The notes under the pieces are model-generated. The model was given only the letters and a program-made list of their open reading frames with translations. It ran no database searches and was not told the origin of the DNA. Positions 1 through 20,020 of a stretch of DNA of 40,000 nucleotides are shown here, piece by piece; the stretch's first letter is position 1; each line of letters begins with the position of its first letter. Made by a program: the position numbers and the translations under genes. The stretch is from Oscillospiraceae bacterium (GTDB taxonomy: Bacteria > Bacillota > Clostridia > Oscillospirales > Ruminococcaceae), in contig JAZSCN010000041.1 in the NCBI GenBank assembly GCA_045602925.1, positions 144,290 through 184,289 of the forward strand. The letters run 5' to 3'.

Positions 1-72
1 CAAGCAGTTTCGCTGTTTTGACAGCATTACCATTTTTATAATGCGTTATATTATGCGTATTTCATAAAAGAA

Positions 73-109
73 ACGGCTTGCAGACTTTATATCTACAAGC
101 CGTATTTTT
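73..109. terminator. Hairpin terminator downstream of the kinase-like gene
   Basis: ACGGCTTG (73-80) pairs with CAAGCCGT (96-103). T-runs follow on both strands. Confidence 0.6.
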
Positions 110-124
110 CATTTTTCTGAGCGT

Positions 125-1957: not shown

Positions 1958-2120
1958 AGCTTTTCCTCCTTATAAAATGGGGCACGCATGACAAAACTAG
2001 CATGCACGCATACTTTACCTTATGATAACAGCTTGTGTAAGGCATGTCAACTAAAATCGATGTTTTGTGAACTTTCCGCAACAATTTGTAGCCCTTTTGT
2101 AACTGTTACATTACACAAAT

Positions 2121-2147
2121 AAGGCGATTTGTATAACAAATCGCCTT
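2121..2147 (-). terminator. Hairpin terminator after the zinc-ribbon membrane protein gene
   Basis: AAGGCGATTTGT / ACAAATCGCCTT is a 12-bp perfect stem with a 3-nt loop. On the minus strand it is followed by ATTTGTGT. Confidence 0.6.
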
Positions 2148-2153
2148 AAAAAT

Positions 2154-2906
2154 TTAGATATCTGTTGGATATGTCGGTGTGGAGTTATAGTACTGATACT
2201 CCATATTTTTATTAAATGTAACTGTAAGTCTTACTGCCTGCTCATTTTCGGCTTCGTCTTCGTAGTAGTACTTATATGTATATGTAACGAAGGCGTTTTC
2301 ATAGGTTATGCTATAAGGGTCGAGGTCGATTTCATCGAGAACCTTCTTATACTTCTGGTTAGTCTTTACGTTATCTAAGTTAATTTCGCTATCGGCTTCT
2401 TCGCCCTTATGATTCTTTTTGCACACGGTAAAATCGGTATGAGTAACTGTAACAATCTCGTTCTCCTCATTAAGGCAGATTGTAACAGCCCATTCGGGAA
2501 AGTTTATTCCGTCAACCTTGACAGAATCCTCAGATTCGACAATATAGTCAAACTTCATAGCGTTATTGACGGCAGTAAACCTAGACTCGTTAGCGACTTT
2601 AATATCTGTATCATTAACTGCTTCGAGGATATTCTCACCAATATACTCTGAGAGCACCTCGGCGGTATCGGTTCCGTCATCGACAATGAGCTTAACAACG
2701 AGGAATATAATAAACACGAGCACAACGACAAGTGCTGCTATTACTGCAAAAAACTTAATTCTCGAGATAATACCCGCCTTATCCATAGGAGTTTTTTCAG
2801 CCTTCTCCTTTGGCAGTTTTTCCTTCTTCTGTTTTATAGCTGTTCCGCAACAGGTACACACCTTTGCGTCATCAGGCAATACTTCTTTACACTTCTTACA
2901 GACCAT
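2154..2906 (-). CDS. Zinc-ribbon membrane protein, unknown function
   Basis: I place the start at MVCKKCKEV (ATG 2906) because AGGAGG lies 6 nt upstream. It has a CxxC...CxxC N-terminus, one TM helix and an extracytoplasmic domain. Confidence 0.75.
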   Translation of the reverse strand: MVCKKCKEVLPDDAKVCTCCGTAIKQKKEKLPKEKAEKTPMDKAGIISRIKFFAVIAALVVVLVFIIFLVVKLIVDDGTDTAEVLSEYIGENILEAVNDTDIKVANESRFTAVNNAMKFDYIVESEDSVKVDGINFPEWAVTICLNEENEIVTVTHTDFTVCKKNHKGEEADSEINLDNVKTNQKYKKVLDEIDLDPYSITYENAFVTYTYKYYYEDEAENEQAVRLTVTFNKNMEYQYYNSTPTYPTDI

Positions 2907-3042
2907 AAAATACCTCCTGTCAAGCATACAAATTTATTTTATCACACATAGCTTACATTGTCAAATAAGCGCACAGAATTTTGTTGAAAAAGCTCTAATA
3001 ATGTAGCTCTTTTACAGCAAATTATACAAACCTCGAGCTGTT

Positions 3043-3072
3043 TTGACGCTACACAAAAGCTACGCATAATAT
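3043..3072 (+). promoter_or_regulatory. Candidate sigma-A promoter for mazF
   Basis: TTGACG (3043-3048), a 17-18 nt spacer, then ATAATAT. Confidence 0.5.
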
Positions 3073-3170
3073 ATATCGGGTTATCAAACTATTAAAGACA
3101 CCTACATGATTAACCATAAAAAATATGGCAATAATAAGCTCAAGGCAACTAAGTTTTAGGAGGAAACGAG

Positions 3171-3524
3171 ATGTCCATACACAGAGGAGAGATATACTAC
3201 GCAGATTTAAGTCCTGTTGTTGGCTCTGAGCAGGGTGGCATTAGGCCTGTACTTATTGTTCAAAATGATGTTGGAAACAGGCATAGTCCGACTGTCATTG
3301 CGGCGGCTATTACCAGTCAGCGTGACAAGTCGAGGTTACCGACTCACATTGAGGTTAACTCCGGTAGCTGTGGCTTACAGAAGGATTCGGTAGTACTATT
3401 AGAACAGATTCGCACGATTGACAAGCGTCGTTTAAAGGAGAGGATGGGGGCACTGGATTCTGCTTCGATGACGAAAATAGATAATGCTTTAGAGATTAGC
3501 TTCGGACTTCACGGTGACAGATAG
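3171..3524 (+). CDS. mazF: MazF/EndoA-type mRNA interferase toxin (PemK family)
   Basis: 117 aa. RGEIYYADLSPVVGSEQGGIRPVLIVQNDVGNRHSPTVIAAAITSQ...LPTHIEV...DSVVLLEQIRTIDKRRL is close to B. subtilis EndoA as I recall it. AGGAGG SD is present. Confidence 0.92.
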   Translation: MSIHRGEIYYADLSPVVGSEQGGIRPVLIVQNDVGNRHSPTVIAAAITSQRDKSRLPTHIEVNSGSCGLQKDSVVLLEQIRTIDKRRLKERMGALDSASMTKIDNALEISFGLHGDR

Positions 3525-3525
3525 A

Positions 3526-3573
3526 GGGGGCGTCTTCCACGCGGTATAGTGTGGGAGGTGCCCCCGATTTTTT
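3526..3573 (+). terminator. Intrinsic terminator after mazF
   Basis: GGGGGC...GCCCCC outer stem with an inner CTTCCAC/GTGGGAG pairing, followed by TTTTTT. Confidence 0.75.
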
Positions 3574-3629
3574 CATTGACTTATTGTGCTGAATGTGATA
3601 TTATAAGGATATTATCAGGAACATCAGAA

Positions 3630-7960: not shown

Positions 7961-9133
7961 ATGAATTACGCTGAAGAATCACTGAAGAAGCATTACGAAT
8001 GGGGTGGAAAGATTGAAGTAATCTGCCGCGCTCCGCTTGAGACAAAGGATGATTTATCGCTTGCATACACGCCCGGTGTTGCACAGCCTTGTTTAGAGGT
8101 TCAAAAGGACATAAACAAGAGCTACGAGTTGACGAGGCGTTCAAATCTTGTTGCTGTAGTGACAGATGGTACGGCTGTGCTCGGACTTGGTGACATTGGC
8201 CCTGAGGCCGGCATGCCTGTTATGGAGGGAAAATGTGCACTCTTCAAGGCATTCGGTGATGTTGATGCTATACCACTTTGTGTACGTTCAAAAGAGGTTG
8301 ACGACATTGTTAATACTGTAAGACTTCTCGCCGGCTCATTCGGTGGAGTAAACTTAGAGGATATTTCTGCGCCACGTTGCTTTGAGATTGAAAGGAAGCT
8401 AAAGGAATGCTGTGATATTCCTATATTCCACGATGACCAGCACGGCACGGCTGTTGTTTGTCTTGCTGCTATGCTCAACGCACTAAAGGTAACCGGCAAG
8501 AAGCTTGAGGACATCAGAGTTGTAACAAGCGGTGCTGGTGCGGCAGGAATTGCAATAATAAGACTTCTCATAGCTATGGGACTTCGTGATGTTGTTCTTT
8601 GTGACACTAAGGGCGCAATCTATGAAGGAAGAGAGGGTCTCAACGCTGAAAAGGCTGAGATGGCAAAGATTACAAACCGTCAGTTAAGAAAGGGCTCACT
8701 CGCAGAGATGCTTGTTGGTGCTGATGTGTTTATAGGTGTATCTGCTCCGAACTGTGTAACGCAGGACATGGTACGCTCTATGGCTGAAAATCCGATACTC
8801 TTCCCTATGGCTAATCCTACACCTGAGATTATGCCTGAGCTAGCAAAAGAGGCAGGTGCGGCTGTTGTTGGAACAGGAAGAAGCGACTTCCCTAATCAGA
8901 TTAATAACGTACTCGCCTTCCCCGGAATTTTCAGGGGTGCACTTGATGTTAGGGCTTCAGACATCAATGATGAGATGAAGGTTGCGGCTGCGAGGGCTAT
9001 TGCGGACTTTGTAACAGATGACAAGCTTTGTGCTGACTACATTATTCCGTCGGCACTTGACAGAAACGTAGCGAAGGCTGTGGCTTCGGCTGTTGCACAG
9101 GCAGCGAGAGACACCGGCGTTGCGAGAATATAG
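7961..9133 (+). CDS. NAD(P)-dependent malic enzyme (short form)
   Basis: 390 aa. LSLAYTPGVA, GTAVLGLGDIGP and FHDDQHGTA are typical malic enzyme motifs. Confidence 0.9.
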   Translation: MNYAEESLKKHYEWGGKIEVICRAPLETKDDLSLAYTPGVAQPCLEVQKDINKSYELTRRSNLVAVVTDGTAVLGLGDIGPEAGMPVMEGKCALFKAFGDVDAIPLCVRSKEVDDIVNTVRLLAGSFGGVNLEDISAPRCFEIERKLKECCDIPIFHDDQHGTAVVCLAAMLNALKVTGKKLEDIRVVTSGAGAAGIAIIRLLIAMGLRDVVLCDTKGAIYEGREGLNAEKAEMAKITNRQLRKGSLAEMLVGADVFIGVSAPNCVTQDMVRSMAENPILFPMANPTPEIMPELAKEAGAAVVGTGRSDFPNQINNVLAFPGIFRGALDVRASDINDEMKVAAARAIADFVTDDKLCADYIIPSALDRNVAKAVASAVAQAARDTGVARI

Positions 9134-9339
9134 GTACAACACGGGCAGGCTTATACAGTCTGCTCGTTATTGTTTTTGTGAGTTTTCCGTCATTTTAACC
9201 CAAAGAAGTGTGGTTTCACGGCTTTATGAGGTCATTTTGCAAAAATGAAATGGCGAACGAGAAATGGAGAGAAATCGAGAAAAACAGAGAGAATTTAAGC
9301 GTTTGAGGGATATAAATTGAAAATTCGGCAAAATACCTA

Positions 9340-9367
9340 TTGACAAGTTTAAAAAAGATGGTATAAT
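9340..9367 (+). promoter_or_regulatory. Candidate promoter for rplM-rpsI
   Basis: TTGACA, a 16-nt spacer, then TGgTATAAT. Confidence 0.65.
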
Positions 9368-9427
9368 AAGTAATGTTGTTTTAAGTCAAGAAGACTAAAA
9401 GAAATAAATTTTATGGAGGAAACTAAT

Positions 9428-9856
9428 ATGTCAACTTACATGCCAAAGGCAAACGACATTAACCGCACATGGTACATCCTTGATGCAGAGGGCGTTTCTC
9501 TCGGTAGAGTTGCAGCAAAGGCTGCTACAATTCTCAGAGGCAAGCACAAGCCAACATTCGCTCCTCACGCTGATTGTGGTGACTATGTAATCATCATCAA
9601 CACAGACAAGGCTGTTCTCACAGGCAAGAAGCTTGATCAGAAGTACTACAGATGGCACACAGGCTGGATTGGCGGCCTTAAGGAAATCAAGTACGACAAG
9701 CTTATGGCTGAGCAGTCAGACAGAGCTATGACTATCGCTGTTACAGGCATGCTCCCAAACAACACACTCGGCCGCAAGGCTGCTACACGTCTCAGAGTTT
9801 TCAAGGGTGCTGAACACAATCAGGCATCAAGAAACCCTGTAAAGTGCGATTTCTAA
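9428..9856 (+). CDS. rplM: 50S ribosomal protein L13
   Basis: [20 protein letters not shown]...; GGAGGA SD precedes ATG 9428. Confidence 0.93.
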
Positions 9857-9872
9857 GAAAGGAGCTATGAAT

Positions 9873-10274
9873 ATGTACGAATCAAAGACAGCATACTACT
9901 ACGGAACAGGCAGAAGAAAGCACTCCGTTGCAAGAGTTAGAGTTTATCCAGGCTCCGGTAACATCACAATCAACGGCAGAGCAATCGACGATTACTTTGG
10001 TCTTGAAACACTCAAGCTTATCGTTCGTCAGCCACTCGCTCTCACAAACAACACAGAAAACTTCGACGTTGTTTGCACAGTAGCAGGCGGCGGCGTTACA
10101 GGTCAGGCTGGTGCTATCAGACACGGTATCTCAAGAGCTCTCCTTCAGTTCAACGGCGAGCTCCGTCCAGAACTCAAGAAGGCTGGCTTCCTCACTCGTG
10201 ACCCAAGAATGAAGGAAAGAAAGAAGTACGGTCTCAAGGCTGCACGTCGTGCTCCACAGTTCTCAAAGAGATAA
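9873..10274 (+). CDS. rpsI: 30S ribosomal protein S9
   Basis: ...[19 protein letters not shown]...[10 protein letters not shown] prefer ATG 9873, which lies 8 nt after AAAGGAG. Confidence 0.93.
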
Positions 10275-10277
10275 TTA
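10260..10277 (+). repeat. attL core (TTCTCAAAGAGATAATTA)
   Basis: Identical to 17173-17190. It contains the last rpsI codons and the TAA stop. Confidence 0.8.
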
Positions 10278-10332
10278 TTTTATCAAGAAAATGGCTTGTT
10301 TACAGGGTTTTCGCCTTGTTGCAAGCCTTTTT

Positions 10333-10351
10333 TGATGTCCGTTTGATGTCC
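10333..10351 (+). repeat. Two direct TGATGTCC copies (candidate integrase arm-type sites, attL side)
   Basis: TGATGTCC at 10333-10340 and 10344-10351, about 55 bp inside attL. Confidence 0.55.
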
Positions 10352-10370
10352 GAACGGTCAAAAAACATAA

Positions 10371-10411
10371 AAAATCAGCGGTTAAGGTGTAAATCCTCAA
10401 CCGCTTTTTTT
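10371..10411. terminator. Bidirectional terminator at the distal end of the island operon
   Basis: AGCGGTT / AACCGCT stem flanked by an A-run and a T-run. Confidence 0.65.
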
Positions 10412-10416
10412 GTTGC

Positions 10417-10656
10417 TTATCGGTTAGTTTCGATAAAGTATTTTACAAGGTCAGGCAAAATGCCCTGCCGTGATACATCACCGATAAATGATACATCGGT
10501 TATCTTTGGCGGTGTCTTACCGTTGGTGTAAAAGTTCAAAACATCAATAATCTTTAACCGCTCTTTTCTTCCGTCATTGTATGTAATATCAGCCCACACA
10601 TCACGGAAAAATTCTTTTTCAAGCTCTGTAAGTCTTTTAATTATTGGCTTGTTCAT
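10417..10656 (-). CDS. Island small protein D (79 aa), member of the MxKxI[IL]x[KR]LxxLE family
   Basis: GAGAGGA SD 7 nt upstream. N-terminus is MNKPIIKRLTELEKE. Resembles protein C along its length. Confidence 0.65.
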   Translation of the reverse strand: MNKPIIKRLTELEKEFFRDVWADITYNDGRKERLKIIDVLNFYTNGKTPPKITDVSFIGDVSRQGILPDLVKYFIETNR

Positions 10657-10861
10657 AAGCTATCCTCTCAATTCTGTTCAATATCCTTTGCACATCGTCA
10701 AGGCTGTTCCCACTTATTACACGGATAAAGCTTGCATTTGGGCTTGCCTCAAGCTCGTCAACGGTGCATTGCTTTTCCACTCCGTCAAAGTCTGCAAGGA
10801 TAACAAGCTTATCAGGTGCTATCTGTTCAAGCTTTCTCAATCTCTCGATTATGCTTTTCAT
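10637..10861 (-). CDS. Island small protein C (74 aa), same family
   Basis: I place the start at MKSIIERLRKLEQ (ATG 10861) after a GAGGGGG SD. It overlaps the start of D by 20 nt. Confidence 0.6.
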   Translation of the reverse strand: MKSIIERLRKLEQIAPDKLVILADFDGVEKQCTVDELEASPNASFIRVISGNSLDDVQRILNRIERIAYEQANN

Positions 10862-10976
10862 CGTCTGCCCCCTCATCATCTCCGAAAATTTCTCTTTCAT
10901 ACATTGAAATATCTTCGATTTCGATTATCTCGTCATTTTCCAACATTTCAAGGCGTTTCAAAATATCCTTTGCCAT
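10827..10976 (-). CDS. Island small protein B (49 aa, acidic), same N-terminal motif
   Basis: Not in the supplied track (<60 aa). ATG 10976 follows a GCGAGGA SD. Translation is MAKDILKRLEMLENDEIIEIED.... It overlaps C by 35 nt. Confidence 0.4.
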   Translation of the reverse strand: MAKDILKRLEMLENDEIIEIEDISMYEREIFGDDEGADDEKHNREIEKA

Positions 10977-11138
10977 TTAGTCCTCGCTTTCAAAATCGTG
11001 TATATTTCTGTTTGGCTGTGGGTTTTCTATCAAGTATTGAATATAGTTCAAAAACTCTTGATGTCTTTTTTCCGTTTCCTCGTCAATGAGCTTTTGTTCT
11101 TTCATTTCCTTGAGCTTTTTCAATATGGCTTTATTCAT
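10977..11138 (-). CDS. Island small protein A (53 aa), same N-terminal motif
   Basis: Not in the track. ATG 11138 overlaps the upstream TAA (TAATG) and follows an AAGGTGAG SD. Translation is MNKAILKKLKEMKEQKLIDEE.... Its stop abuts the ATG of B. Confidence 0.55.
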   Translation of the reverse strand: MNKAILKKLKEMKEQKLIDEETEKRHQEFLNYIQYLIENPQPNRNIHDFESED

Positions 11139-11827
11139 TAGTCGCTCACCTTGATATAAAACTTTTCCGCTTCAGATGTGATTTTATCTGCCGTTTCTTC
11201 ATAAAGTCTTGCAATACCTGTTGCACCTGCGAAAACCTGTTCTTTGTCCCTGCGGTCTTTGTCTGCTCTGACGGCTCTTGTACTCCACAAAATAAGGTCG
11301 TTTATCGGTCTTATATAAGGGAATGAGGCTTCTTTACATTTGATAGCAAAACTTCCCATTTTTCTATCTATTGTGTCGCTGATATTTGCTCTTTCTTCCG
11401 CATATTTGCCGATAATTCTTAACATAGTGATATTATCAGCAAAACCATCTGCAAGGTCTATCAATTCATTATCTTTGAGAACACCGCTTTTGAGTAGTTC
11501 AAGTGTAGGCATATCAATCATTGAGGCTGTCGCTCTGTTGTACGGCTCAAAGATTTCAACACATTCTTGCTTGATTGCTTCAAATTCTGCTCTTGCTCTG
11601 TCCTCAACGCTTTCAAAAGCAATACGGAGCTGTTTCATTTCCTCATCGTGCTTGATTGAGGCTTCCTGTTTCTCTCTTGCATTACTCCAACCTCTGCGGA
11701 GTTCTTCGTTCCATTTCTTTTTACCCTCAATAAGAGCATTACCAAGTGTTACATATTCCTCTCTATATTTCGGATATGCGTTTCTTATTCTGTCTGTAAA
11801 TTCCTTAACATTTCTATACTGTGCCAT
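11138..11827 (-). CDS. Island 229-aa helical protein, unknown function
   Basis: AGGAG SD. Charged, helix-rich composition with no motif I recognise. Confidence 0.7.
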   Translation of the reverse strand: MAQYRNVKEFTDRIRNAYPKYREEYVTLGNALIEGKKKWNEELRRGWSNAREKQEASIKHDEEMKQLRIAFESVEDRARAEFEAIKQECVEIFEPYNRATASMIDMPTLELLKSGVLKDNELIDLADGFADNITMLRIIGKYAEERANISDTIDRKMGSFAIKCKEASFPYIRPINDLILWSTRAVRADKDRRDKEQVFAGATGIARLYEETADKITSEAEKFYIKVSD

Positions 11828-11848
11828 AGTTCAAAATCTCCTTATAAT

Positions 11849-12211
11849 TTAATTATTCATACTTTTTTCAAGTTCTTCAATTCTTGAAATTATGTCTGCC
11901 TGTTCGGTGTATTTCAGGCAATTTTGCAATATCAGAGCAGAGGCATTTAATCGCACCTGTGGAGCGGTGTCCGTATCTTCCATAATGCCCCTGATTGTGT
12001 CAACCGCCTTTGTCAATGTTGCTTGTAATGTATTGCAAGCCTCATTCAATACAAGAGAACGCCTGCGGTCATATTCTGCCTTGAATGTTTCGTCAGCAAG
12101 CCTATTGTAAATCGTGGTACGGCTTACGCATGAAATTTTCTCGGCTTCCGCTATGCTTCCACACGATAACAGAGCGGTCAAGATGTGTTCGTCTTTTGGT
12201 TTCAATTCCAT
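11849..12211 (-). CDS. HTH protein resembling the N-terminal DNA-binding module of small terminase subunits
   Basis: LKPKDEHILTALLSCGSIAEAEKISCVSRTTIYNRLADETFKAEYDRRR follows the pattern of TerS N-termini (LTxKQxxF...G..t.Aa..aG.S..TaY..l..p.v...i), followed by a helical oligomerisation-like tail. Confidence 0.65.
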   Translation of the reverse strand: MELKPKDEHILTALLSCGSIAEAEKISCVSRTTIYNRLADETFKAEYDRRRSLVLNEACNTLQATLTKAVDTIRGIMEDTDTAPQVRLNASALILQNCLKYTEQADIISRIEELEKSMNN

Positions 12212-12215
12212 TCAA

Positions 12216-12548
12216 TCACCCCTTATTTTGTGCGATTTTTCGCTGATATGTAAAGATTTTACCTGCTGTTTTGTCATACACTCGCAAGCCTGACGGAATA
12301 ATCTCGATTTTTATTGTATCGGTGTCAACTGATGTATAAGGCTCGGAAACGCTTTCAGAACGCTTTACACGGACGGAGCGGAAAGAGTATTCCTTATCTG
12401 CTACAAGGTCAGAAACAAGCGTTATATTGCCCTCTCGTGTGATTGTAACGCTATCACTCTGATATAGTGTTTTCGGCTCATTGTTGCACCCTGCAAACAA
12501 CATCAAACACACACATACAAGCAACGCAAAAGCAATTTTACTTTTCAT
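12216..12548 (-). CDS. Island lipoprotein (110 aa)
   Basis: Signal peptide with lipobox: MKSKIAFALLVCVCLMLFAG-C. Confidence 0.75.
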   Translation of the reverse strand: MKSKIAFALLVCVCLMLFAGCNNEPKTLYQSDSVTITREGNITLVSDLVADKEYSFRSVRVKRSESVSEPYTSVDTDTIKIEIIPSGLRVYDKTAGKIFTYQRKIAQNKG

Positions 12549-12687
12549 CTGTATTCACTCCCTTTTTGAGTTCTCGTATTTCGGCTTTTAGTCGATTGAT
12601 TTCTTTTCTTTGCTCATTCCATTTATGCTCCCATTGTTTGATTTTATCATTCAAAAGGTCTATGAGCATTTTGTCATAGTCTGTCAT
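12538..12687 (-). CDS. Island 49-aa coiled-coil-like protein
   Basis: Not in the track. A GAGGTGA SD precedes ATG 12687. Translation is MTDYDKMLIDLLNDKIKQWEHKWNEQRKEINRLKAEIRELKKGVNTDEK. Its stop overlaps the lipoprotein start. Confidence 0.45.
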   Translation of the reverse strand: MTDYDKMLIDLLNDKIKQWEHKWNEQRKEINRLKAEIRELKKGVNTDEK

Positions 12688-12692
12688 CTATT

Positions 12693-12905
12693 TCACCTCG
12701 CTAACATTTGGATTTGTTTATTATTCAAAAATTTTCGTTTGCGTATATAGTCAACGGCTTCATCATATTCAGGAAAATAATGTCCGTTTCCTGCAAACTG
12801 TACGCACCATTCAGCATAATCAGGCGGTGAATAGTCTTGTATTCTTTGCAACCACACTATACAGCCCTTATGCGTGCATATTTTCTCTTGTGATAGAATA
12901 ACCAT
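12693..12905 (-). CDS. Island 70-aa protein, unknown function
   Basis: I place the start at MVILSQEK (ATG 12905) after a GAGAGGTG SD. The longer track ORF would begin inside the iterons and has no SD. Confidence 0.55.
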   Translation of the reverse strand: MVILSQEKICTHKGCIVWLQRIQDYSPPDYAEWCVQFAGNGHYFPEYDEAVDYIRKRKFLNNKQIQMLAR

Positions 12906-12922
12906 TGTTTCACCTCTCTGTC

Positions 12923-13039
12923 GGTTACAGAGGTTACAAGAGTTACGCATTTTTCCATAGAGTATATAATCATAAATATATTATTTTATTTTTTATAGAT
13001 ACTCCATAGGATTTTACTGTAACGCCTGTAACCTGTAAC
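12923..13039. repeat. Candidate replication origin: inverted sets of GTTAC iterons flanking an AT-rich core
   Basis: GGTTACAG, GGTTACAA and AGTTACG at 12923-12947. Opposite them, CTGTAAC x3 at 13017-13039. A ~65-bp AT-rich stretch lies between, directly downstream of the replicase gene. Confidence 0.5.
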
Positions 13040-13045
13040 CGTATA

Positions 13046-15112
13046 TTAAATATGATGGACAAAATTATAATTGCGTTTCGGTAACACTCTCAATCTTTGA
13101 GTTTTGCCGTCAATCTTTCGGATTTCCGCGTTATATCCCATTTTATCAAGCACTTTTCCGATTTGAGCAGAGGAATAGGCTCGGAGTTCATCGGAGTATA
13201 ACTGCTTAAAATCTGTAACGGTCATATATAACCACTCGATTTTATACCTTGCATTATCGGATTGATTGAGAATGTCCTCAATTTCGTTTTCGCCTTTGAG
13301 TTTCTTTTCGTGATTGGCGTTTCTCTCTGCAAGTTGCTTTTGTTCAGCCTGTGTCAATCTAAATCCCTGAATATCATTCAACGCCATTTGCTCGATTTGT
13401 TTCCACAACTGCACAGCATTAAAATCACGCAAGCGGTCAAGGTCGATTTTATCAATTCTAACCGTGAGAAAACGCCTATTTCCCGTGTTATCTATAAGAA
13501 ATTCATCACTATTACAAGTACCGCAAAGGCTTGTCCGTCTTAAAGCTCGAATGTTATCTCTGGCGTACGGTCTTCTGTACTCATCAACCGAATTTGTGAT
13601 AAATGCTTTCAGGCGTTCAATATCGCTTCTGAATGTGCTTTCGATTTCGCCCATTTCAGCTATCCAACAGGACAGAGCTTTTATATAACTGTCCTTATCT
13701 CTAAAATCAATGCAAACACCCTCTTTGAAAAATTGCGGTTTTAGTGCTAACTTTCGGAAAAGAGAGGTTTTGCCAATTCCTTGTTTACCTGTGATTACAA
13801 GAACGCCGTCCGCTCCGAATGGCTCTGTTTCATCATTATGTAACAGAGATATGCTTTGCCATAACCATTTTTTAATAAGTGTACGGCTCAATTCGTCATC
13901 ATCGGCAATATGTAGAATAGAATACAATTCCGAAAGATAGTCCCTGCCGTCATATTCGCAAGAGTTCAGCAATTCAATCACAGGATTGTATCTGTTGCGG
14001 CTTGCCACTATGTCAAGGTATGCGGATATAATTTGCATATTGCACCGCTTGTAATTGTCCTGTAACTCACTATACAGAATTGCTGATATATTGGAATGCA
14101 AACGCTCTTGACTTTCGCCCTGCATACCCTCAATGTCAATAAGCTGTGTAACATCGTTTAACCGTACTGTAACACCGTTTTCGGTCAGGTAGTCAGATAA
14201 TACTTCAGGTGTAAATAAATCGCTTGTATCGTCTTTTTGAGGCTCTTTTCTTGGTCTGCCTCTGCCTTTGTAATACTCGCCCCCACACAGAGCAACAGCC
14301 TTTGATATTGTTGCTTCTCGATAGTCTGCACGCTCCCATTTTTGACGGTATAAAGCACTACCTCGAAAAGCTGTGTCAATGGCGTTTGTATCGCCTTGTA
14401 GGTAGAATGCAAGTATATTACAAAGGGCTATGTCTGCGGAGCTTTCATCGTTGTTATACGCCGATATATCGCCCCTGTCATATAAAGCAATAAACTTTGC
14501 ACCATTCTTTGATTTCCTTGCTATATCAAGTATATTTTTACTCAATCGTTCACCGCCTTTATACATATACTTTTCTATGAAATATAGGATTTCTTCGGTC
14601 TTGTCCGTTATTGTTTCGGTGTCGGATACTCTATCACCTGTAAATGTAAAATATCTGTTTGTTAATCCGCTGAAATAACATTCAAGCCCATTTTTCGGAT
14701 TTTTTTGATAATACTTTGTATCAAGCTTTTCCGCTCCGCTCTTGTTTGTGGTCTTGGGTATTCTTGACATATCGCACCTGAACAGGATATGAAAACCGCT
14801 TCCGCTCGGAGATCTTTCGATATATGTCCCCTCAAAGAGTTGCAGTATCTCATTTTGGAAAGGGTTTGACTTTGTGTGTCCGTCTGTTCCGTCAATATCA
14901 ATTCCGCAAATACCATTTGCAAACACAAAACCAATACCGCTATACTTGGGCTTTGCTTTTTCTGATACAGAATAATCATTCCAAGTTGACGGTAAATCAG
15001 TCTTTGCTTTACCGCCTGTTTTTGCGTTATATGGTATCTTTGTCGGTCTGCCGTCTTTGTCGGTTTCATAACGCCAACATAACCACACACTTTGAGTTTT
15101 CAAGTCATTCAA
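13046..15112 (-). CDS. Bifunctional primase-polymerase (PrimPol) N-domain fused to a VirE/D5-like P-loop NTPase (island replicase)
   Basis: 688 aa with a TTG start after GGCGGTG. Motifs: GIDIDG, SPSGSGFHILF and Walker A GKQGIGKTS. Confidence 0.85.
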   Translation of the reverse strand: MNDLKTQSVWLCWRYETDKDGRPTKIPYNAKTGGKAKTDLPSTWNDYSVSEKAKPKYSGIGFVFANGICGIDIDGTDGHTKSNPFQNEILQLFEGTYIERSPSGSGFHILFRCDMSRIPKTTNKSGAEKLDTKYYQKNPKNGLECYFSGLTNRYFTFTGDRVSDTETITDKTEEILYFIEKYMYKGGERLSKNILDIARKSKNGAKFIALYDRGDISAYNNDESSADIALCNILAFYLQGDTNAIDTAFRGSALYRQKWERADYREATISKAVALCGGEYYKGRGRPRKEPQKDDTSDLFTPEVLSDYLTENGVTVRLNDVTQLIDIEGMQGESQERLHSNISAILYSELQDNYKRCNMQIISAYLDIVASRNRYNPVIELLNSCEYDGRDYLSELYSILHIADDDELSRTLIKKWLWQSISLLHNDETEPFGADGVLVITGKQGIGKTSLFRKLALKPQFFKEGVCIDFRDKDSYIKALSCWIAEMGEIESTFRSDIERLKAFITNSVDEYRRPYARDNIRALRRTSLCGTCNSDEFLIDNTGNRRFLTVRIDKIDLDRLRDFNAVQLWKQIEQMALNDIQGFRLTQAEQKQLAERNANHEKKLKGENEIEDILNQSDNARYKIEWLYMTVTDFKQLYSDELRAYSSAQIGKVLDKMGYNAEIRKIDGKTQRLRVLPKRNYNFVHHI

Positions 15113-15127
15113 TAACTGTTCACCGCC

Positions 15128-15316
15128 TTACTGCTTAACTGTTAAGCTCTGCAACATTTCAACGGTCTTTTCATAATTGATTAGTGCCTTTTTTCCGATA
15201 TAGAGAACAGGCAACTTGTTTTGTTTTACCATCAATCTGATTGCGTGTTCTGTGAGTATTCCTGTTTTCGCAAGCTCTCTCACCGTCATCATTGTTACTT
15301 TGTTTTCCTGCGTCAT
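15128..15316 (-). CDS. Small HTH DNA-binding protein (excisionase/MerR-like HTH_17 type)
   Basis: I place the start at MTQENKVTMMTVRELAKTGILTEHAIRLMVKQNKLPVLYIGKK after an AAAGGAG SD. 62 aa. Confidence 0.75.
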   Translation of the reverse strand: MTQENKVTMMTVRELAKTGILTEHAIRLMVKQNKLPVLYIGKKALINYEKTVEMLQSLTVKQ

Positions 15317-15345
15317 TGTTTTTACTCCTTTACAAATATTTTTTT

Positions 15346-15383
15346 GCAAAAGAAAAGAGAACAACGTTTTTTGCGTTGCTCTC
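15346..15383 (-). terminator. Intrinsic terminator inside the island operon leader, just upstream of the HTH gene SD
   Basis: Minus-strand RNA: GAGAGCAACG-caaaaaa-CGTTGTTCTC, 10 bp with one G-U pair, followed by TTTTCTTTT. The same position would be an A-C mismatch in the plus sense. Confidence 0.7.
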
Positions 15384-15483
15384 TAAAAACAAAGAGGACA
15401 ACACAAAATAGAATACACCAAAAAGGTGTCGACAAGCTCGTGAGTATTACGCTCGTTGGCTCGTTCTATTCTGTGTTCCCCTC
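15384..15483 (-). promoter_or_regulatory. Long leader hairpin with a U-tract (second terminator-like structure)
   Basis: 20-nt arms at 15394-15413 and 15464-15483. They pair 19/20 including 2 G-U in the minus sense, but only 17/20 in the plus sense. On the minus strand TTTGTTTTT follows. Confidence 0.55.
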
Positions 15484-15686
15484 ATACATTTTACGTTTTA
15501 TTTAATGTGGTTTAACTATCCACTATGTAGCCCATCTATTTTTTGTCGGAAAGGAAGCGACAATTTTTCGGTAAAACACTCGTAATAGCAATGATACTTG
15601 ATTGTATCAATATTTACCGCCTAATTTTACGACATTGGGGTTGTCGTTTGGGAACGAAAACTGTTCAATATTCTTTTGTTATTTGT

Positions 15687-15715
15687 ATTATATCACAATA
15701 TTTTTTATTTGTCAA
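15687..15715 (-). promoter_or_regulatory. Consensus sigma-A promoter driving the island minus-strand operon
   Basis: On the minus strand: TTGACA, a 17-nt spacer, then TATAAT. Confidence 0.7.
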
Positions 15716-15822
15716 GCGTTTTGTCTTAAAAAATACAATATATTGTGTTTTTGTTGGTTTGGTTGAAAAATGTATATACAATATATACGATTTTGTTGCA
15801 TTATATATAGCATATTATCTTA

Positions 15823-15851
15823 TTGACAAATTATAAGAGATAATATATAAT
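15823..15851 (+). promoter_or_regulatory. Consensus sigma-A promoter for int
   Basis: TTGACA (15823-15828), a 17-nt spacer, then TATAAT (15846-15851), 40 nt before the int ATG. Confidence 0.7.
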
Positions 15852-15891
15852 AATATAAAACGATATTAAAAGATATTAGAGAGGTGAAAAA

Positions 15892-17031
15892 ATGGCAACA
15901 ATAAATAAGCGTGGCAACACATTTCAAATTGTGGTTTCTCTCGGTCTTGATGTGAACGGAAAGAAAATCAGAAAAACAACTACATATAAACCGCCTGAAA
16001 ATACTACACCGAAAAAGGCTGAAAAACTCGCACAAGAGTTTGCAGTTGAATTTGAGCGTAAATGTAGAGGTCTTTCCTCATTGAATGAAAATATGCGGTT
16101 TTCTGAAATGGCTGAATGGTTTATTGATAACTACGCAAAAAACAAGTTAAAGCCGATAACCGCCTACAACTACGAAAAGCAAATAAAAAACAATTTGCTC
16201 CCTGAATTAGGAAACATCAAACTCAAAGATTTTACCCCTGCAAAGATTACAGCGTTTTTCAAGACTCGTACTTATCAGCCTGCGACTTGTCGCAAAGTAT
16301 ATGTTATTTTGCAAAGTGTTTTTGCTCGTGCTGTGGAGCAAGGTTTCATCAAAGAAACGCCCTGCACAAAGGCGGTTATATTGCCAAAAGCGGAAACAGC
16401 AAAAGAAAAAAAGCCTTTTCTTGACGAAAATCAAGCAAAAGACTTGTTAAAAATGGTTGAGGATAACACACAATTCAACCGCATTATAAAAGTATTGTTA
16501 TTTACAGGTATGCGTTCGGGTGAGTGCTTGGCTCTCCGTTGGCAAGATATAGACTTTGAAAATAAAACAATACACATTGAAAACACTTTAACAGATGTGG
16601 GCGGTAAACATTGGCTTCAACCGCCTAAAACAGCAACAAGTAACAGATATATTGCTTTATCTGATATTTTGGCTGATATATTCAGAGAACAGAAAAAGTA
16701 TAATGATGAAAAGTTGAGCAAACTCGGAAAATTATATACTTATCCTGAAATGGTATTTACAACAGAGAGCGGAAATTTTGTTGATAGGTCAGGACTCAAC
16801 ACACAATTCAGACGATTTGTAAAAGGTACAGACTTTGACTTTATCACTTTGCATAGTTTACGCCATTGCAACGCAACACTTTTGATAAACAGCGGTATTG
16901 ACTTAAAAATTGTAAGTGAGTTGCTCGGTCATTCAGATGTATCAACCACAGCGAATGTATATGCAGATGTTTTGAAAAGCTCAAAGGCAAAAGTTGCTGA
17001 TTTGATTTCCTTAAAACTGAATGGAAATTGA
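15892..17031 (+). CDS. int: Tyrosine recombinase / phage-type integrase with N-terminal arm-binding domain
   Basis: 379 aa. Motifs: R in LLFTGMRSGE, HSLRHCNATLL, LGHSDVSTTANVYADV. N-terminus MATINKRGNTFQIVVSLG is arm-type. GAGAGGTG SD. Confidence 0.92.
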   Translation: MATINKRGNTFQIVVSLGLDVNGKKIRKTTTYKPPENTTPKKAEKLAQEFAVEFERKCRGLSSLNENMRFSEMAEWFIDNYAKNKLKPITAYNYEKQIKNNLLPELGNIKLKDFTPAKITAFFKTRTYQPATCRKVYVILQSVFARAVEQGFIKETPCTKAVILPKAETAKEKKPFLDENQAKDLLKMVEDNTQFNRIIKVLLFTGMRSGECLALRWQDIDFENKTIHIENTLTDVGGKHWLQPPKTATSNRYIALSDILADIFREQKKYNDEKLSKLGKLYTYPEMVFTTESGNFVDRSGLNTQFRRFVKGTDFDFITLHSLRHCNATLLINSGIDLKIVSELLGHSDVSTTANVYADVLKSSKAKVADLISLKLNGN

Positions 17032-17056
17032 TGTCCGTGATGTCCTTTTGATGTCC
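17029..17056 (+). repeat. Three direct TGATGTCC copies (candidate integrase arm-type sites, attR side)
   Basis: TGATGTCC at 17029-17036, 17038-17045 and 17049-17056. The run starts in the int stop codon and has the same orientation as the left copies. Confidence 0.55.
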
Positions 17057-17172
17057 GAAAATACAAGAGGCTATTGCAATTTACAAAAAGTTATGATACA
17101 ATAATCAAGGAAAAGCCTTATAATATCGGACTTTTCAAAACGATACAAAACACTATAAAACAGCGTTCTTAT

Positions 17173-17190
17173 TTCTCAAAGAGATAATTA
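17173..17190 (+). repeat. attR core (TTCTCAAAGAGATAATTA)
   Basis: Identical to 10260-10277. It is a duplicated rpsI 3' end with no rpsI body upstream. Confidence 0.8.
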
Positions 17191-17210
17191 CATTTTATTG
17201 TGTTATCAAA

Positions 17211-17240
17211 GACATCCATCTTTTCGATGGATGTCTTTTT
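17211..17240 (+). terminator. Strong hairpin terminator, probably the displaced native rpsI terminator
   Basis: GACATCCATC-ttttc-GATGGATGTC followed by TTTTT, 21 nt after attR. Confidence 0.8.
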
Positions 17241-17243
17241 CTA

Positions 17244-17272
17244 TTGATTTTCTATCCTGATTATGATATAAT
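17244..17272 (+). promoter_or_regulatory. Candidate promoter for the structured RNA/leader
   Basis: TTGATT, a 17-nt spacer, then TGaTATAAT (extended -10). Confidence 0.6.
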
Positions 17273-17279
17273 GATAATT

Positions 17280-17444
17280 GCCAAACTAACTTAATATTTG
17301 TGAATTGTGAGTGCATTATCTTTTTATGGGATAACTATGCTCTTTTTTAGCATACTATTTTCATCTTTGAATTTGACAAAATGCAAATTCCATTTATGAT
17401 GATATAGTGTGCTTGCACTCGATTTCACATAAAGTTAGTTTGGC
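17280..17444 (+). ncRNA. Candidate structured RNA (unclassified leader, riboswitch-like element or sRNA)
   Basis: 13-bp perfect closing helix: GCCAAACTAACTT (17280-17292) with AAGTTAGTTTGGC (17432-17444). A nested helix: GTGAA..GAGTGCA with TGCACTC..TTCAC. Internal hairpins at 17337-17353 and 17369-17390. Confidence 0.45.
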
Positions 17445-17466
17445 GACTATCGGAGTTTGCGTTTTT

Positions 17467-17500
17467 GTGCGGTTACTTCGGTAGCCGCACTTTTTATTTT
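17467..17500 (+). terminator. Intrinsic terminator with a UUCG tetraloop
   Basis: GTGCGGTTAC-TTCG-GTAGCCGCAC, 10 bp with one G-U pair, followed by TTTTTATTTT. It lies ~10 nt before the AGGAGG of the next gene. Confidence 0.8.
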
Positions 17501-17522
17501 GTACAATTTAGGAGGAAGAAAA

Positions 17523-18062
17523 ATGGGAGAAAAGAAAAAGAACAAGAAAAAAGGCTGTTTAGCATCTTTCTGTGTGATTGTAGTCTTATTTATTGTATTA
17601 ATTGCTGTGGCATCACAATCTGATAACAATGATACAAGTAGTGAAAGTTCGTCAGAAGACAAATCTTCTACAGTAAATTCTGAGGAATCAAAAGATGATG
17701 AAAGAGTTCTTTATGAAGACGATAATTTTAAGATTTCATATATAGACATAACAGACCCACAAGCTGGAGTTACAATGTATATAATGAATCTAAAGCTCGA
17801 AAACAAATCAGAAAATAGCGTTTTAATATCTTTAGAAGAAACATACATAAACGATACGCAAGTACAATTCATTGGCGGTAATCTGAGTTTTGACGGAACA
17901 TTACCTGGCAAAAAATCTATCTGTTCCTTTTCTTTTGGTTACGACAAATTAGGAATCAAAAGCATAGAAGATATAAAAAACATTGAATTCAAAATTGAAC
18001 TGACAGACACTGATTTTTCTGAAGTATATTTAGAAACAGATACTATAAAGATAGCTTTATAG
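17523..18062 (+). CDS. Membrane-anchored extracytoplasmic protein, unknown function
   Basis: I place the start at MGEKKKNKKKGCLASF after AGGAGG. One TM helix, a Ser/Asp-rich linker and a beta-rich domain. Confidence 0.7.
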   Translation: MGEKKKNKKKGCLASFCVIVVLFIVLIAVASQSDNNDTSSESSSEDKSSTVNSEESKDDERVLYEDDNFKISYIDITDPQAGVTMYIMNLKLENKSENSVLISLEETYINDTQVQFIGGNLSFDGTLPGKKSICSFSFGYDKLGIKSIEDIKNIEFKIELTDTDFSEVYLETDTIKIAL

Positions 18063-18073
18063 TTACGAAAATT

Positions 18074-18104
18074 ATCCTCCTCGGTTTTCGGGGAGGATTT
18101 TTTA
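18074..18104 (+). terminator. Intrinsic terminator
   Basis: ATCCTCC...GGAGGAT stem followed by TTTTTT. Confidence 0.7.
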
Positions 18105-18323
18105 TTGCTCCTAAAACGCACTTGCTATGGGATTTGGTGAGCCTTGTACAAAAAACTTTGTTACGAAAAGCTTTTCGTAATAATACGCAGCACAGATTTG
18201 ATATACAAGTAAAATCTTAGATATATCTTGTTAATTTATCGTGATAAAATCATTGTCAAGGAGGGGCGGTGGAGCATTACTGCTCGTGCAGGCTTGCAAT
18301 AGAACACACCGTCTTATAATATT

Positions 18324-19433
18324 ATGAACAAGAAGGTAATTATTGCGATTACAACTGCGGTAGTTGTACTTGCGGCGGCTATTTCACTTATCGTTATCAA
18401 ACCATGGGCAGATGACAATGCTGACAGCTCTTCTGCTGTTGATTCTTCATCAGTTGCAGATTCCGTTGCTGATGAGAGCGAAGCCGACAGCTCCTCAGAG
18501 CCTGAAGCTTCAAGCTCCGAGCCTGAAGCTCCTGCAAAGGAAGCTACTCCGGTTGATTACTACGGCGAGATGAAGGTTGTTGACGGAAAGATAACAGGCA
18601 GCAAGACCGGTGAGCCTATGAGAGTAACAGGCATGAGCTTCTTCTGGAGCAACTGGTCACAGAAGTACTACACTGCTGACTACGTTGACTATCTGGTTGA
18701 TGATTTCAACTGTGAGATTGTAAGATGCTCATACGGAATCAATGACGAGGGTGTTCCTCACGACACAAGCTGCGAGGCTCTTATTGAGGATGTTATTGTA
18801 AGAGCCATTGAGAGAGGCGTTTATGTTATCATTGACTGGCACTCACATGGTGCTCACAAGAATCCTGACGAGGCTATAAGATACTTCGGCGAGCTTGCTA
18901 AGAAGTACGGCGAATATGACAACGTTATTTTTGAAGTTTACAACGAGCCTACAAACTACACCTGGAAAGCTGTAAAGGACTACTCTGAGCTGGTTATTGC
19001 TGAGATTAGAAAGTACTCTGACAATCTTGTTATTGTTGGTTCTCCGCAGTGGTCACAGAAGGTTGAGAGTGCTGCAAACAATCCTATCAATGATGAAAAC
19101 GTAGCTTACACACTACACTTCTACGCAGGAACTCATCAGCAGTGGCTCCGTGACAGTGCTGACAGAGCTATGGCGGCAGGAATTGCACTCTTTATCACCG
19201 AATGGGGCAGCGTTAACGCTGACGGAAACGGTGCAATTGCAAAGGAATCCACTGAAGAATGGTTCAAGTGGATTGACGAAAACGGTCTTTCAAGCTGCAA
19301 CTGGGCAGTAAATGACAAGGCTGAGGGCTCTAGCATTTTCGTTGAAAAGAGTGATGATGTTCTTACTGAAACAGGAATATACATTAAGGAGCTTATTTCA
19401 GAAAGAACTACTGACGCACCTTGGAGAAAGTAG
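18324..19433 (+). CDS. Glycoside hydrolase family 5 endoglucanase (cellulase) with N-terminal signal anchor
   Basis: Motifs: VIIDWHSH, FEVYNEP (acid/base Glu), HFYAG, FITEWGS (nucleophile Glu). Confidence 0.88.
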   Translation: MNKKVIIAITTAVVVLAAAISLIVIKPWADDNADSSSAVDSSSVADSVADESEADSSSEPEASSSEPEAPAKEATPVDYYGEMKVVDGKITGSKTGEPMRVTGMSFFWSNWSQKYYTADYVDYLVDDFNCEIVRCSYGINDEGVPHDTSCEALIEDVIVRAIERGVYVIIDWHSHGAHKNPDEAIRYFGELAKKYGEYDNVIFEVYNEPTNYTWKAVKDYSELVIAEIRKYSDNLVIVGSPQWSQKVESAANNPINDENVAYTLHFYAGTHQQWLRDSADRAMAAGIALFITEWGSVNADGNGAIAKESTEEWFKWIDENGLSSCNWAVNDKAEGSSIFVEKSDDVLTETGIYIKELISERTTDAPWRK

Positions 19434-19550: not shown

Positions 19551-20009
19551 ATGGGGGTATACATTAAAAACAGCTGGGTGCGTTCGATATTAGAAGGGAT
19601 ATGCGTATTCTTTATAGGAGCTCTCTCCTACGGCTTACTTGAGGTCATAACGAGAGGCTTTACGCATATTTCTATGGGGCTACTGGGTGGGCTTTGCTTT
19701 ATGTTTATGAGTTACACAAGTGGGCTTCGTGAGCAGGGTGACCTTACGCTTTTGCAGCAATTAATTTGCGTAACGCTTTTTATAACTGTATCGGAGCTTT
19801 TATGCGGACTTATCATAAATCTCAGCTTAGGTTTAGCGGTATGGGATTACTCGGATATGCCACTTAATTTATACGGGCAGATATGCTTACCTTTTTCACT
19901 TTTATGGCTCTTGATAACCTTTATAGGAATCATTGTGGATGATGTTACAAAGAGGCATTTATTTGCAAGAAAAAAGGACTCATTCATAATATTGCTAAGG
20001 AGAAGGTAG
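19551..20009 (+). CDS. Small polytopic membrane protein (resembles the family annotated 'putative ABC-transporter type IV')
   Basis: 152 aa with 4-5 TM helices. The family call is from memory only. Confidence 0.6.
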   Translation: MGVYIKNSWVRSILEGICVFFIGALSYGLLEVITRGFTHISMGLLGGLCFMFMSYTSGLREQGDLTLLQQLICVTLFITVSELLCGLIINLSLGLAVWDYSDMPLNLYGQICLPFSLLWLLITFIGIIVDDVTKRHLFARKKDSFIILLRRR

Positions 20010-20020
20010 GCGATTTTTAC

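Follow-up and report, generated by a model that had tools for sequence, protein, structure and literature searches.

Phage satellites are well charted in Proteobacteria and Bacilli. The core components of phage-inducible chromosomal islands (PICIs), as listed by de Sousa et al. 2023 (PMC10085698), are an integrase at one end with att repeats, a primase-replicase with an adjacent origin, a regulation module, a small terminase (TerS), and a capsid-morphogenesis or packaging-interference gene that Firmicutes PICIs frequently lack; PICIs have no genes for tail, holin, or portal. Minimalist chromosomal islands inducible by phages (PICMIs) are Vibrionaceae satellites of about 5–6 kb that have int, alpA, fis, and a primase and are induced by virulent phages (PMC10803314). 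The streptococcal integrative mobilizable element (IME) IMESag-rpsI is a 9.5-kb element with Cro/CI, RepA_N, Rep_trans, a MOBV relaxase, and an oriT, and its excision to circles has been shown (PMC5090054). Here we describe a 6,913-bp island in a 40,000-nucleotide stretch of DNA from an Oscillospiraceae bacterium (contig JAZSCN010000041.1; hereafter the window, to which positions refer unless a contig is named), inserted at the 3′ end of rpsI, the gene for ribosomal protein S9. The island is a site-specific integrative element of 6.9 kb that, with a probability of roughly 0.55, is a minimal PICI-like satellite of phages; its helper dependence, packaging, and trigger are inferred. No description of a phage satellite in the dominant uncultured gut Clostridia, or of the family to which this island belongs, was found in the literature searched, within its limits.

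The insert is bounded by an 18-bp sequence, TTCTCAAAGAGATAATTA, that occurs exactly twice in the window (10260–10277 and 17173–17190; 0 expected in 100 shuffles, even with 2 mismatches allowed). The left copy spells the last rpsI codons F-S-K-R and the TAA stop (C terminus ...APQFSKR*; the open reading frame, ORF, ends at 10274), and the last five rpsI codons and the stop are rebuilt by the island core. The right copy has no rpsI body upstream and is followed by a hairpin with a T-run. The original prediction, made from the letters alone, had described both copies and the hairpin correctly. G+C falls from about 0.47 outside to 0.34–0.40 between the two copies, where the strand skews are inverted. 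The features of the two ends are as follows.

9873–10274, plus strand: rpsI (ribosomal protein S9), the integration target (ORF; PF00380 on identical or related proteins)
10260–10277, plus strand: attL core, 18-bp direct repeat (repeat search; attL and attR compared in at least 10 hosts)
10283–10335, plus strand: island-borne hairpin and U-run just 3′ of the rebuilt rpsI stop (ΔG −24.2 kcal/mol, z −5.3)
10334–10351, plus strand: two tandem GATGTCC repeats, candidate arm-type sites of the left arm (in every family member)
15892–17031, plus strand: 379-aa tyrosine integrase (PF00589, 1e-29; PF14659)
17030–17056, plus strand: three GATGTCC repeats, candidate arm-type sites of the right arm (repeat search, relatives compared)
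17173–17190, plus strand: attR core (constant distance from int in all relatives)
17208–17238, plus strand: displaced native rpsI terminator, 13-bp stem and T-run (ΔG −20 kcal/mol, z −6.0)

Empty sites were found by look-up of the 133-aa version of RpsI. In L013 (along with 20 similar places) and L014, RpsI is identical to that of the window and the flanks are syntenic, with malic enzyme, rplM, and rpsI on one side and a GH5 cellulase on the other, and the rpsI stop runs directly into the sequence of window 17188 onward; window 17173–17375 and L013 10388–10592 are 96% identical. These empty sites, for which the original prediction had suggested looking, identify the 6,913 bp as an insertion and 17208–17238 as the native rpsI terminator. 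Together with at least 60 related insertions, they bear out a site-specific insertion into the last 15–18 bp of rpsI that has pushed the native terminator 6.9 kb downstream. Comparison of attL with attR in at least 10 hosts places the exchanged segment at about CTCAAAGAGATAATT, which is likely the strand-exchange region. The island-borne hairpin at 10283–10335 is kept in all cargo types, with stem changes that preserve pairing, and is probably the replacement rpsI terminator.

Other sequence is also seen at or near this site. A 566-bp contig (L001, 395–566) encodes an identical 135-aa RpsI and continues after TTCTCAAAGAGATAAT into a third, unrelated sequence, which may be another element or the flank of another strain. 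In L012 (10403–11783), where RpsI is identical to that of the window, the rpsI stop is followed at once by a different insert of about 0.9–1.4 kb; its first bases, ttattttatcag, resemble the left end of the island, and neither of its two minus-strand ORFs (264 and 59 aa) has a Pfam match. Farther downstream (window 19952–20014 versus L012 14040–17551), the window is without about 3.5 kb beyond the GH5 and CmpB genes, a segment present in L012–L014 with an acetyltransferase, a GH3 beta-glucosidase, and a CarD-like gene. Exact-protein look-ups of the window GH5 cellulase and of the 688-aa island replicase returned none on record.

The integrase lies at the right edge and is divergent from a replication and accessory operon, an arrangement in the original prediction with which the ORF inventory, profile searches, and relatives agree. 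The GATGTCC motif of the candidate arm-type sites occurs 8 times in the window versus 2.8 expected. Relatives have one att core at rpsI and the other 142 nt beyond the int stop, with both island ends conserved. Among the phage and satellite records of INPHARED, none matches the integrase at more than 32% identity, and a blastn search with the entire island found no matching INPHARED phage. IMESag-rpsI and the integrative and conjugative elements (ICEs) that use rpsI likewise have a tyrosine recombinase, the rpsI 3′ end as target, and att repeats (PMC5090054, PMC4701971, PMC5357655). The novelty originally claimed for the rpsI target therefore fails, as the site is already described for streptococcal ICEs and IMEs.

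A clade of integrases 50–62% identical to that of the window (L063, L064, L066, L067, L068, L074, L075) also abuts rpsI. In this clade rpsI is convergent and directly follows the int stop, so that the att-int orientation is opposite, and rpsI specificity looks old, with two architectures. Additional or missing cores are seen in a few loci. The host rpsI of L046 (3949–4122) ends in TTCAGCAAACGTTAA, with no core, and the island lies 145 nt further on, in a decoy reading ...ccacagTTCTCAAAGAGATAAT; in L044 (10285–10457), L045 (10285–10461), and L035 (3222–3454), a second core copy is found 155–215 nt after attR, with a terminator-like hairpin between the two. Such displaced or second cores may have been left behind by earlier elements, or they may be portable landing pads made of an rpsI end.

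In the assembly collection, 232 blocks are indexed as containing this exact 379-aa integrase. In nine of the ten loci examined, which differ in host background and include at least three cargo types, the integrase follows rplM-rpsI; the tenth (L010) is cut before its left junction. Island lengths in the family range from 5,528 to 7,468 bp, and the terminator hairpin after attR is supplied by each host. Type A cargo (the window and L006) contains PrimPol-VapE; type B, a D5_N/DUF5906 primase and a DUF6076 gene; type C, no primase but HTH_11 and DUF6291; and type D (L015), a 370-aa helicase-like protein and an XRE repressor. Across the family, at least four replication modules and several regulator cassettes are found in combination with the integrase. 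About 35 species-representative metagenome-assembled genomes (MAGs) have an integrase of at least 84% identity; they bear the labels Acutalibacteraceae, Oscillospiraceae, Ruminococcus, Eubacteriales, or "Clostridia" and originate from the guts of humans, deer, sheep, and goats. The family to which the island belongs is large and mosaic, and its hosts are uncultured Oscillospirales-type Clostridia from the guts of humans and ruminants. Int together with attR is 95–100% identical at the nucleotide level where rpsI is only 72–92% identical (100% versus 82% between L004 and L008), a disparity that indicates recent transfer across species or genera. The integrase is 100% identical in amino acid sequence despite nucleotide change, which indicates purifying selection on int.

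At different sites, tRNA 3′ ends among them, these cargo modules are paired with other integrases. Sister elements of this kind (ends of L112–L117; L121, 5400–5800) have the core TCGGGGGTTCGAATCCCTCATAGCGCGCCA, with short tandem arm repeats on both sides of it (AACCCATAC in L121, TCGTACTA in L107), and many of their contigs end exactly at the core. The left core of L015 (TTATCAAAGAGATAAT; region 1–3608) is preceded by other genes, including one for a GmrSD_N restriction-like protein, rather than by rpsI, and a tandem element is therefore suggested; on its right side (10089–16854) lie upp, an XRE gene, and then prophage-like TerL (large terminase), portal, and major head genes 2.6–7 kb away.

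Two contigs appear to represent forms that are free or in tandem. The first, L148 (11,184 bp), has no host gene and is 95–96% identical at the nucleotide level to the window island, including the ORF-less slot discussed below. It has two attP-type junctions (right end, TTCTCAAAGAGATAATTA, left end) 7,161 nt apart, and its duplicated 3,466 nt are 99.8% identical. Assembly of a circle or concatemer through strain bubbles would account for L148, as would a tandem array; integrase activity is needed in both cases. L107 is a circularly permuted 7.5-kb contig with overlapping ends that carries type B cargo (92% nucleotide identity over 4.7 kb) and a different integrase. A decayed prophage remnant or immobile genomic islet, as the small size and the two thirds of genes without an assigned function might suggest, would not be expected to have precise att ends, empty sites in close relatives, an intact integrase with synonymous change only across hosts (100% amino acid versus 95–98% nucleotide identity), the same compact gene order in dozens of species, and attP-type junction contigs. 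This explanation is already largely refuted, and we regard it as very improbable.

The cargo of the window is a single minus-strand operon in the order helix-turn-helix (HTH) protein, replicase, 70-, 49-, and 110-aa proteins, TerS-like protein, 229-aa protein (p229), and four small proteins. The original ORF inventory stands overall, with three gene starts revised (70 rather than 85 aa for one small gene, 62 aa for the HTH protein, and the start of the second small paralogue). Its replication and packaging-like genes are listed here.

11138–11827, minus strand: p229, 229-aa all-helical protein, hypervariable cassette (AlphaFold2, AF2; predicted local distance difference test, pLDDT, 88)
11849–12211, minus strand: 120-aa TerS-like protein, HTH and long helical hairpin (phrog_2538 TerS, E 5e-7)
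12916–13040, no strand: candidate replication origin, starting just after the replicase stop (repeats)
13046–15112, minus strand: 688-aa replicase (PF22763, 5e-18; PF05272, 6.5e-51; phrog_1829, phrog_1313)
15128–15316, minus strand: 62-aa HTH protein, excisionase/AlpA-like, first operon gene (TIGR01764, E 0.003, below cut-off)

The replicase combines a PrimPol-type N terminus, an NrS-1 polymerase helix-bundle domain, and a VapE/D5-type helicase. The candidate origin consists of three GTTACAG repeats, about 75 nt of AT-rich sequence, and three inverted GTAAC repeats; as the 5′ small gene encodes 70 aa (12693–12905) and not 85 aa, these iterons are intergenic. The pri-rep-ori arrangement of the Staphylococcus aureus pathogenicity islands (SaPIs) was reportedly set out by Ubeda and colleagues in 2007, and the candidate origin next to the island replicase matches that layout. 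The 62-aa HTH protein is found in cargo types A–D (56–97% identity by blastp; about 59% by tblastn in type B).

Set against the PICI core components, the island has the integrase at one end with att repeats and an empty site, the primase-replicase with an adjacent candidate origin, and no tail, holin, or portal gene (Pfam, PHROGs). For the regulation module, the 62-aa HTH protein is a candidate whose excisionase match lies below cut-off, with no repressor gene in the slot; for the small terminase, the TerS-like protein is a candidate whose best PDB folds are small terminases but at weak E-values. No capsid-morphogenesis or packaging-interference gene was matched in Pfam, PHROGs, or NCBIfam, and p229 is a positional candidate only for this role. 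The order of a divergent operon next to int, an HTH/excisionase-like gene, a primase-replicase with an iteron origin, a TerS-like gene, and accessory genes is that of the Gram-positive PICIs (SaPIs, streptococcal, enterococcal), which are also alike in having no structural or lysis genes. The island differs from PICIs in its hosts, uncultured Oscillospirales-type Clostridia, in having no recognizable capsid-morphogenesis or Ppi-type gene and, in this subtype, no Stl-like repressor gene, and in size, the family at 5.5–7.5 kb being about half as long as the Streptococcus satellite phage Javan records that it matched (about 9–18 kb). Compared by description with the PICMIs (PMC10803314), the island is alike in its small size, reduced gene set, and absence of capsid-remodelling genes; PICMIs are described as packaging as multimers, whereas for the island multimer packaging is only an expectation. 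It differs from PICMIs in phylum and in having a TerS-like gene and a conserved accessory module.

The comparison with IMEs leads to a different account, in which the island is an integrative mobilizable element without a relaxase of its own that is moved by the relaxase of a co-resident conjugative element acting at an oriT-like site; Int and the HTH protein would excise the element and PrimPol-VapE would replicate it. The island does have the site-specific integration and excision module of an IME, rpsI is a classical target of streptococcal ICEs and IMEs, near-identical int and att sequences across genera fit conjugation better than typical phage host ranges, the tandem arrangement in L015, with its GmrSD_N neighbor, and possibly that in L148 resemble the accretion of streptococcal ICEs and IMEs, and the lipoprotein of the operon could be an entry-exclusion factor. 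However, no relaxase, Rep_trans, MOB, or coupling protein was found in the several dozen family members inspected, whereas IMESag-rpsI has a MOBV relaxase and an oriT. The island is likewise without the Cro/CI, RepA_N, and Rep_trans of that element, and no oriT was seen, although a bare oriT would escape the sequence check. Profile searches of the island (Pfam, PHROGs, NCBIfam, PADLOC) gave no match to relaxase, coupling protein, capsid, portal, tail, or lysis families, as the original prediction had it, and the gene calls of the relatives contain none either. The conserved accessory genes are related to phage packaging modules (TerS-like/TerL; p229/TerL/portal) and not to conjugation. We hold transfer by a conjugative helper, the leading rival to the satellite reading, to be unlikely.

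The TerS-like protein provides one link to phages. Its AF2 model (pLDDT 92) folds into an HTH followed by a long helical hairpin, and the best folds in the PDB are 2ao9, PaP3 TerS, and NV1 TerS (probability 0.87–0.99). In tblastn searches it matches ORFs from 30 records named "Streptococcus satellite phage Javan" at about 35% identity across 96% of its length; Javan343 was the one record inspected, and there the TerS-like ORF comes downstream of the primase. Homologues are 59–96% identical among the 29 aligned and are under purifying selection, and in L121 and L123 a homologue lies immediately upstream of TerL. L121 is MT836267, an 11.3-kb fecal-virome "Bacteriophage sp." scaffold that is circular as judged by its 124-nt terminal overlap. 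Its genes include int, accompanied by arm repeats and a tRNA-type attP, those for an XRE repressor and a primase-helicase, and a TerS-like gene directly preceding TerL (phrog_3717, 1e-48), with a p229-like gene next; none of the ten ORFs scanned matched capsid, portal, or tail families.

p229 has no PDB or Pfam match. It is only 36–41% identical to the copies in L006 and L033, in islands that are otherwise 95–98% identical, and the cassette has sharp breakpoints at 11160 and 11787. Among IMG/VR contigs, relatives of p229 are encoded after TerS-TerL in L123, between TerL and portal in L126, and beside tape-measure-like genes in L125, as also in L105; the relatives in L105, L121, and L123–L125 lie near TerS/TerL or tape-measure genes. 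Judged from these sequences, the swap pattern would fit a role in helper specificity or in interference or packaging.

Two further observations concern these proteins and their virome relatives. At its C terminus the TerS-like protein has IISRIEELEK, which is similar to the motif at the N terminus of the small paralogues (IIKRLTELEK, IIERLRKLEQ), a resemblance visible as DNA repeat family D1 (11849–11893, 10615–10644, 10823–10852); it may represent a shared docking helix. L105 (MT837364) was considered as an encapsidated relative and is more likely a phage fragment, with DnaB, a sigma factor, and a tape-measure-like gene. Five other "Bacteriophage sp." scaffolds of 4–9 kb from the same human-fecal study (MT836674.1, MT839446.1, MT839951.1, MT837456.1, and MT838598.1) encode either an integrase with about 30% identity to that of the island or a VapE part with 38% identity; small int/primase elements may be numerous in gut virome data.

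The TerS fold, the TerL-adjacent homologue, the streptococcal satellite homologues, and the SaPI-like origin favor a phage satellite within the pair of hypotheses, PICI-like satellite or mobilizable island, that the original prediction had put forward and that is supported as a pair. For such a satellite we propose the following sequence of events. The integrase would bind the core along with the GATGTCC arm repeats on either side in attP, and would recombine attP with the highly conserved rpsI 3′ end. A trigger, probably helper-phage infection or induction, would lead to expression of the minus-strand operon, whereupon the 62-aa excisionase-like HTH protein and the integrase would excise the element and the PrimPol-VapE replicase would fire the iteron/AT-rich origin beside its own gene. 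The TerS-like protein could then recruit the helper large terminase to island DNA, which would be packaged into helper-made particles, probably as multimers since one unit is only 6.9 kb. p229 and the four small paralogues may set helper specificity or interfere with helper packaging. In the window subtype, a structured, terminator-ended leader would replace the usual regulator gene upstream of int.

The complete integration and replication kit would also suffice for an integrative plasmid-like replicon or a particle-independent satellite that spreads passively by transformation or vesicles and whose phage-like genes serve in anti-phage interference. PICI-type satellites of S. thermophilus are reported to be mobilized by natural competence and to give phage resistance (PMC13376191), and the hypervariable p229 cassette looks like an arms-race gene. 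On the other hand, PADLOC matched no known defence family in the island, competence of the uncultured hosts would have to be assumed, and the TerS-like gene is under purifying selection. We consider spread without particles quite unlikely.

Several observations nonetheless weigh against a helper-dependent phage satellite. No helper phage was identified, and none lies within the 40-kb window; the related circular contigs from viromes and metagenomes speak only indirectly for induction and packaging by a helper. No rpsI-targeting family member was found in a virion-derived data set; L015, the only IMG/VR match, is an integrated copy near a prophage-like region. Searches of viral and JGI metagenome contigs with strict attP patterns, anchored on GCGTTMTTAT, were negative, although such a pattern would miss the real L148 junction, which reads cagcAttcttat; relaxing the left-end pattern added nine attL sites in these contigs but no attP. 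Instead of a circle, L148 could be a tandem array in a chromosome. The fold matches of the TerS-like protein have weak E-values (0.06–0.1) and template modelling (TM) scores of 0.3–0.5, the modelled HTH and helical hairpin could belong to a plain regulator instead, and type B and some other relatives are without a TerS-like gene altogether. An origin from virus-like particles (VLPs) is likely for MT836267 from its record text and from PMC8361208, in which VLPs from Mexican children were DNase-treated, and for MT837364 we infer it from the same two sources. Finally, int sequences that are 95–100% identical at the nucleotide level in different genera imply a wider range of hosts than transfer by phages usually reaches.

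The window subtype also departs from its family in how it could be regulated. All other relatives examined have an ORF of at least 187 aa (DUF6076-like, XRE, or other) upstream of and overlapping int, whereas the window type alone has a 575-nt ORF-less slot between int and the operon. The ORF-less cassette, of about 545 bp, has breakpoints at 15344 and 15889 and is also found in L006, L137–L140, L142–L145, and L148; a decayed XRE or DUF6076 gene was considered and left no tblastn trace. The slot contains two features.

15320–15682, minus strand: ORF-less structured leader, terminator-ended (fold z −6.3 versus shuffled)
15687–15851, divergent: perfect sigma-70-type promoters, minus strand 15715–15687 and plus strand 15823–15851 (both 12/12)

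The 330-nt leader ends in an intrinsic terminator (15356–15384), 37 nt before the HTH start, and with such a leader in place of a regulator gene, operon expression may be gated by read-through. No compensatory base-pair changes were found among six variants of the leader RNA, so that its structure rests on thermodynamics and on a 47-nt deletion in one variant that spares the outer stem. Rfam gave nothing significant over 9000–18500. The two promoters form a 30-nt inverted repeat (15686–15715 and 15823–15852). Palindromes of the ACAATATATTGT type lie between them, and promoters and palindromes are conserved in the six slot variants; by their sequence, the palindromes look like operators for some regulator.

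In satellite P4, the early operon lies behind a constitutive promoter and a terminating leader, with no protein repressor, and immunity is RNA-based. P4 is a working analogy for the window subtype only: there is no sequence or gene-content similarity, the island has no psu, delta, or sid genes, and an RNA mechanism would be hypothetical, no covariation having been seen among the leader variants. A PICI-like satellite in which the leader acts as a switch, with RNA- or termination-based control, is a doubtful elaboration, for which helper-driven antitermination and P4-like RNA immunity are hypothetical mechanisms. Were it true, the family would be a cross-genus, broad-host-range gut satellite system anchored on the universally conserved rpsI end.

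The remaining features of the operon are small.

10377–10405, minus strand: operon terminator (terminator scan)
10417–10656, minus strand: 79-aa small protein, paralogue 1 (ORF)
10637–10861, minus strand: 74-aa small protein, paralogue 2 (probable start, the ORF extending to 10900; ORF, L006 gene call)
10827–10976, minus strand: 49-aa small acidic protein, paralogue 3 (ORF)
10977–11138, minus strand: 53-aa small protein, paralogue 4 (ORF)
12216–12548, minus strand: 110-aa lipoprotein, signal peptide and lipobox LFAGC (sequence)
12538–12687, minus strand: 49-aa coiled-coil protein (ORF)
12693–12905, minus strand: 70-aa protein (ORF, L006 gene call, ribosome-binding site)

The four small paralogues share the N-terminal motif MxKxII[KE]RL..LE. 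For paralogue 1, no family was matched in Pfam, PHROGs, NCBIfam, or PADLOC, the last two of which were uninformative for the island as a whole; a homologue of paralogue 2 lies between TerS-like and p229-like genes in an IMG/VR contig (L124). The lipoprotein is common to cargo types A, B, and D, and an exclusion function for it is speculative. As an Rz-like spanin it was rejected, since the match (E 0.007) covers the signal peptide only.

What sets the island apart from the Gram-positive PICIs is its host group, its integrase, its half size, its having no recognizable capsid-morphogenesis gene, and the repressor-less subtype; the rpsI target is already known. The family accounts for the recurrent block of genes annotated as "hypothetical" after rpsI in gut MAGs, and presents a compact modular chassis of 5.5–7.5 kb, built from an integrase, a conserved packaging-like module, and a regulator slot and replicase that can both be swapped; its landing site is a universally conserved ribosomal gene. 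The family could serve as a site-specific integration tool for gut Clostridia that are hard to engineer. If the elements are helper-dependent, the family would mark unknown phage-host networks in the Oscillospirales.

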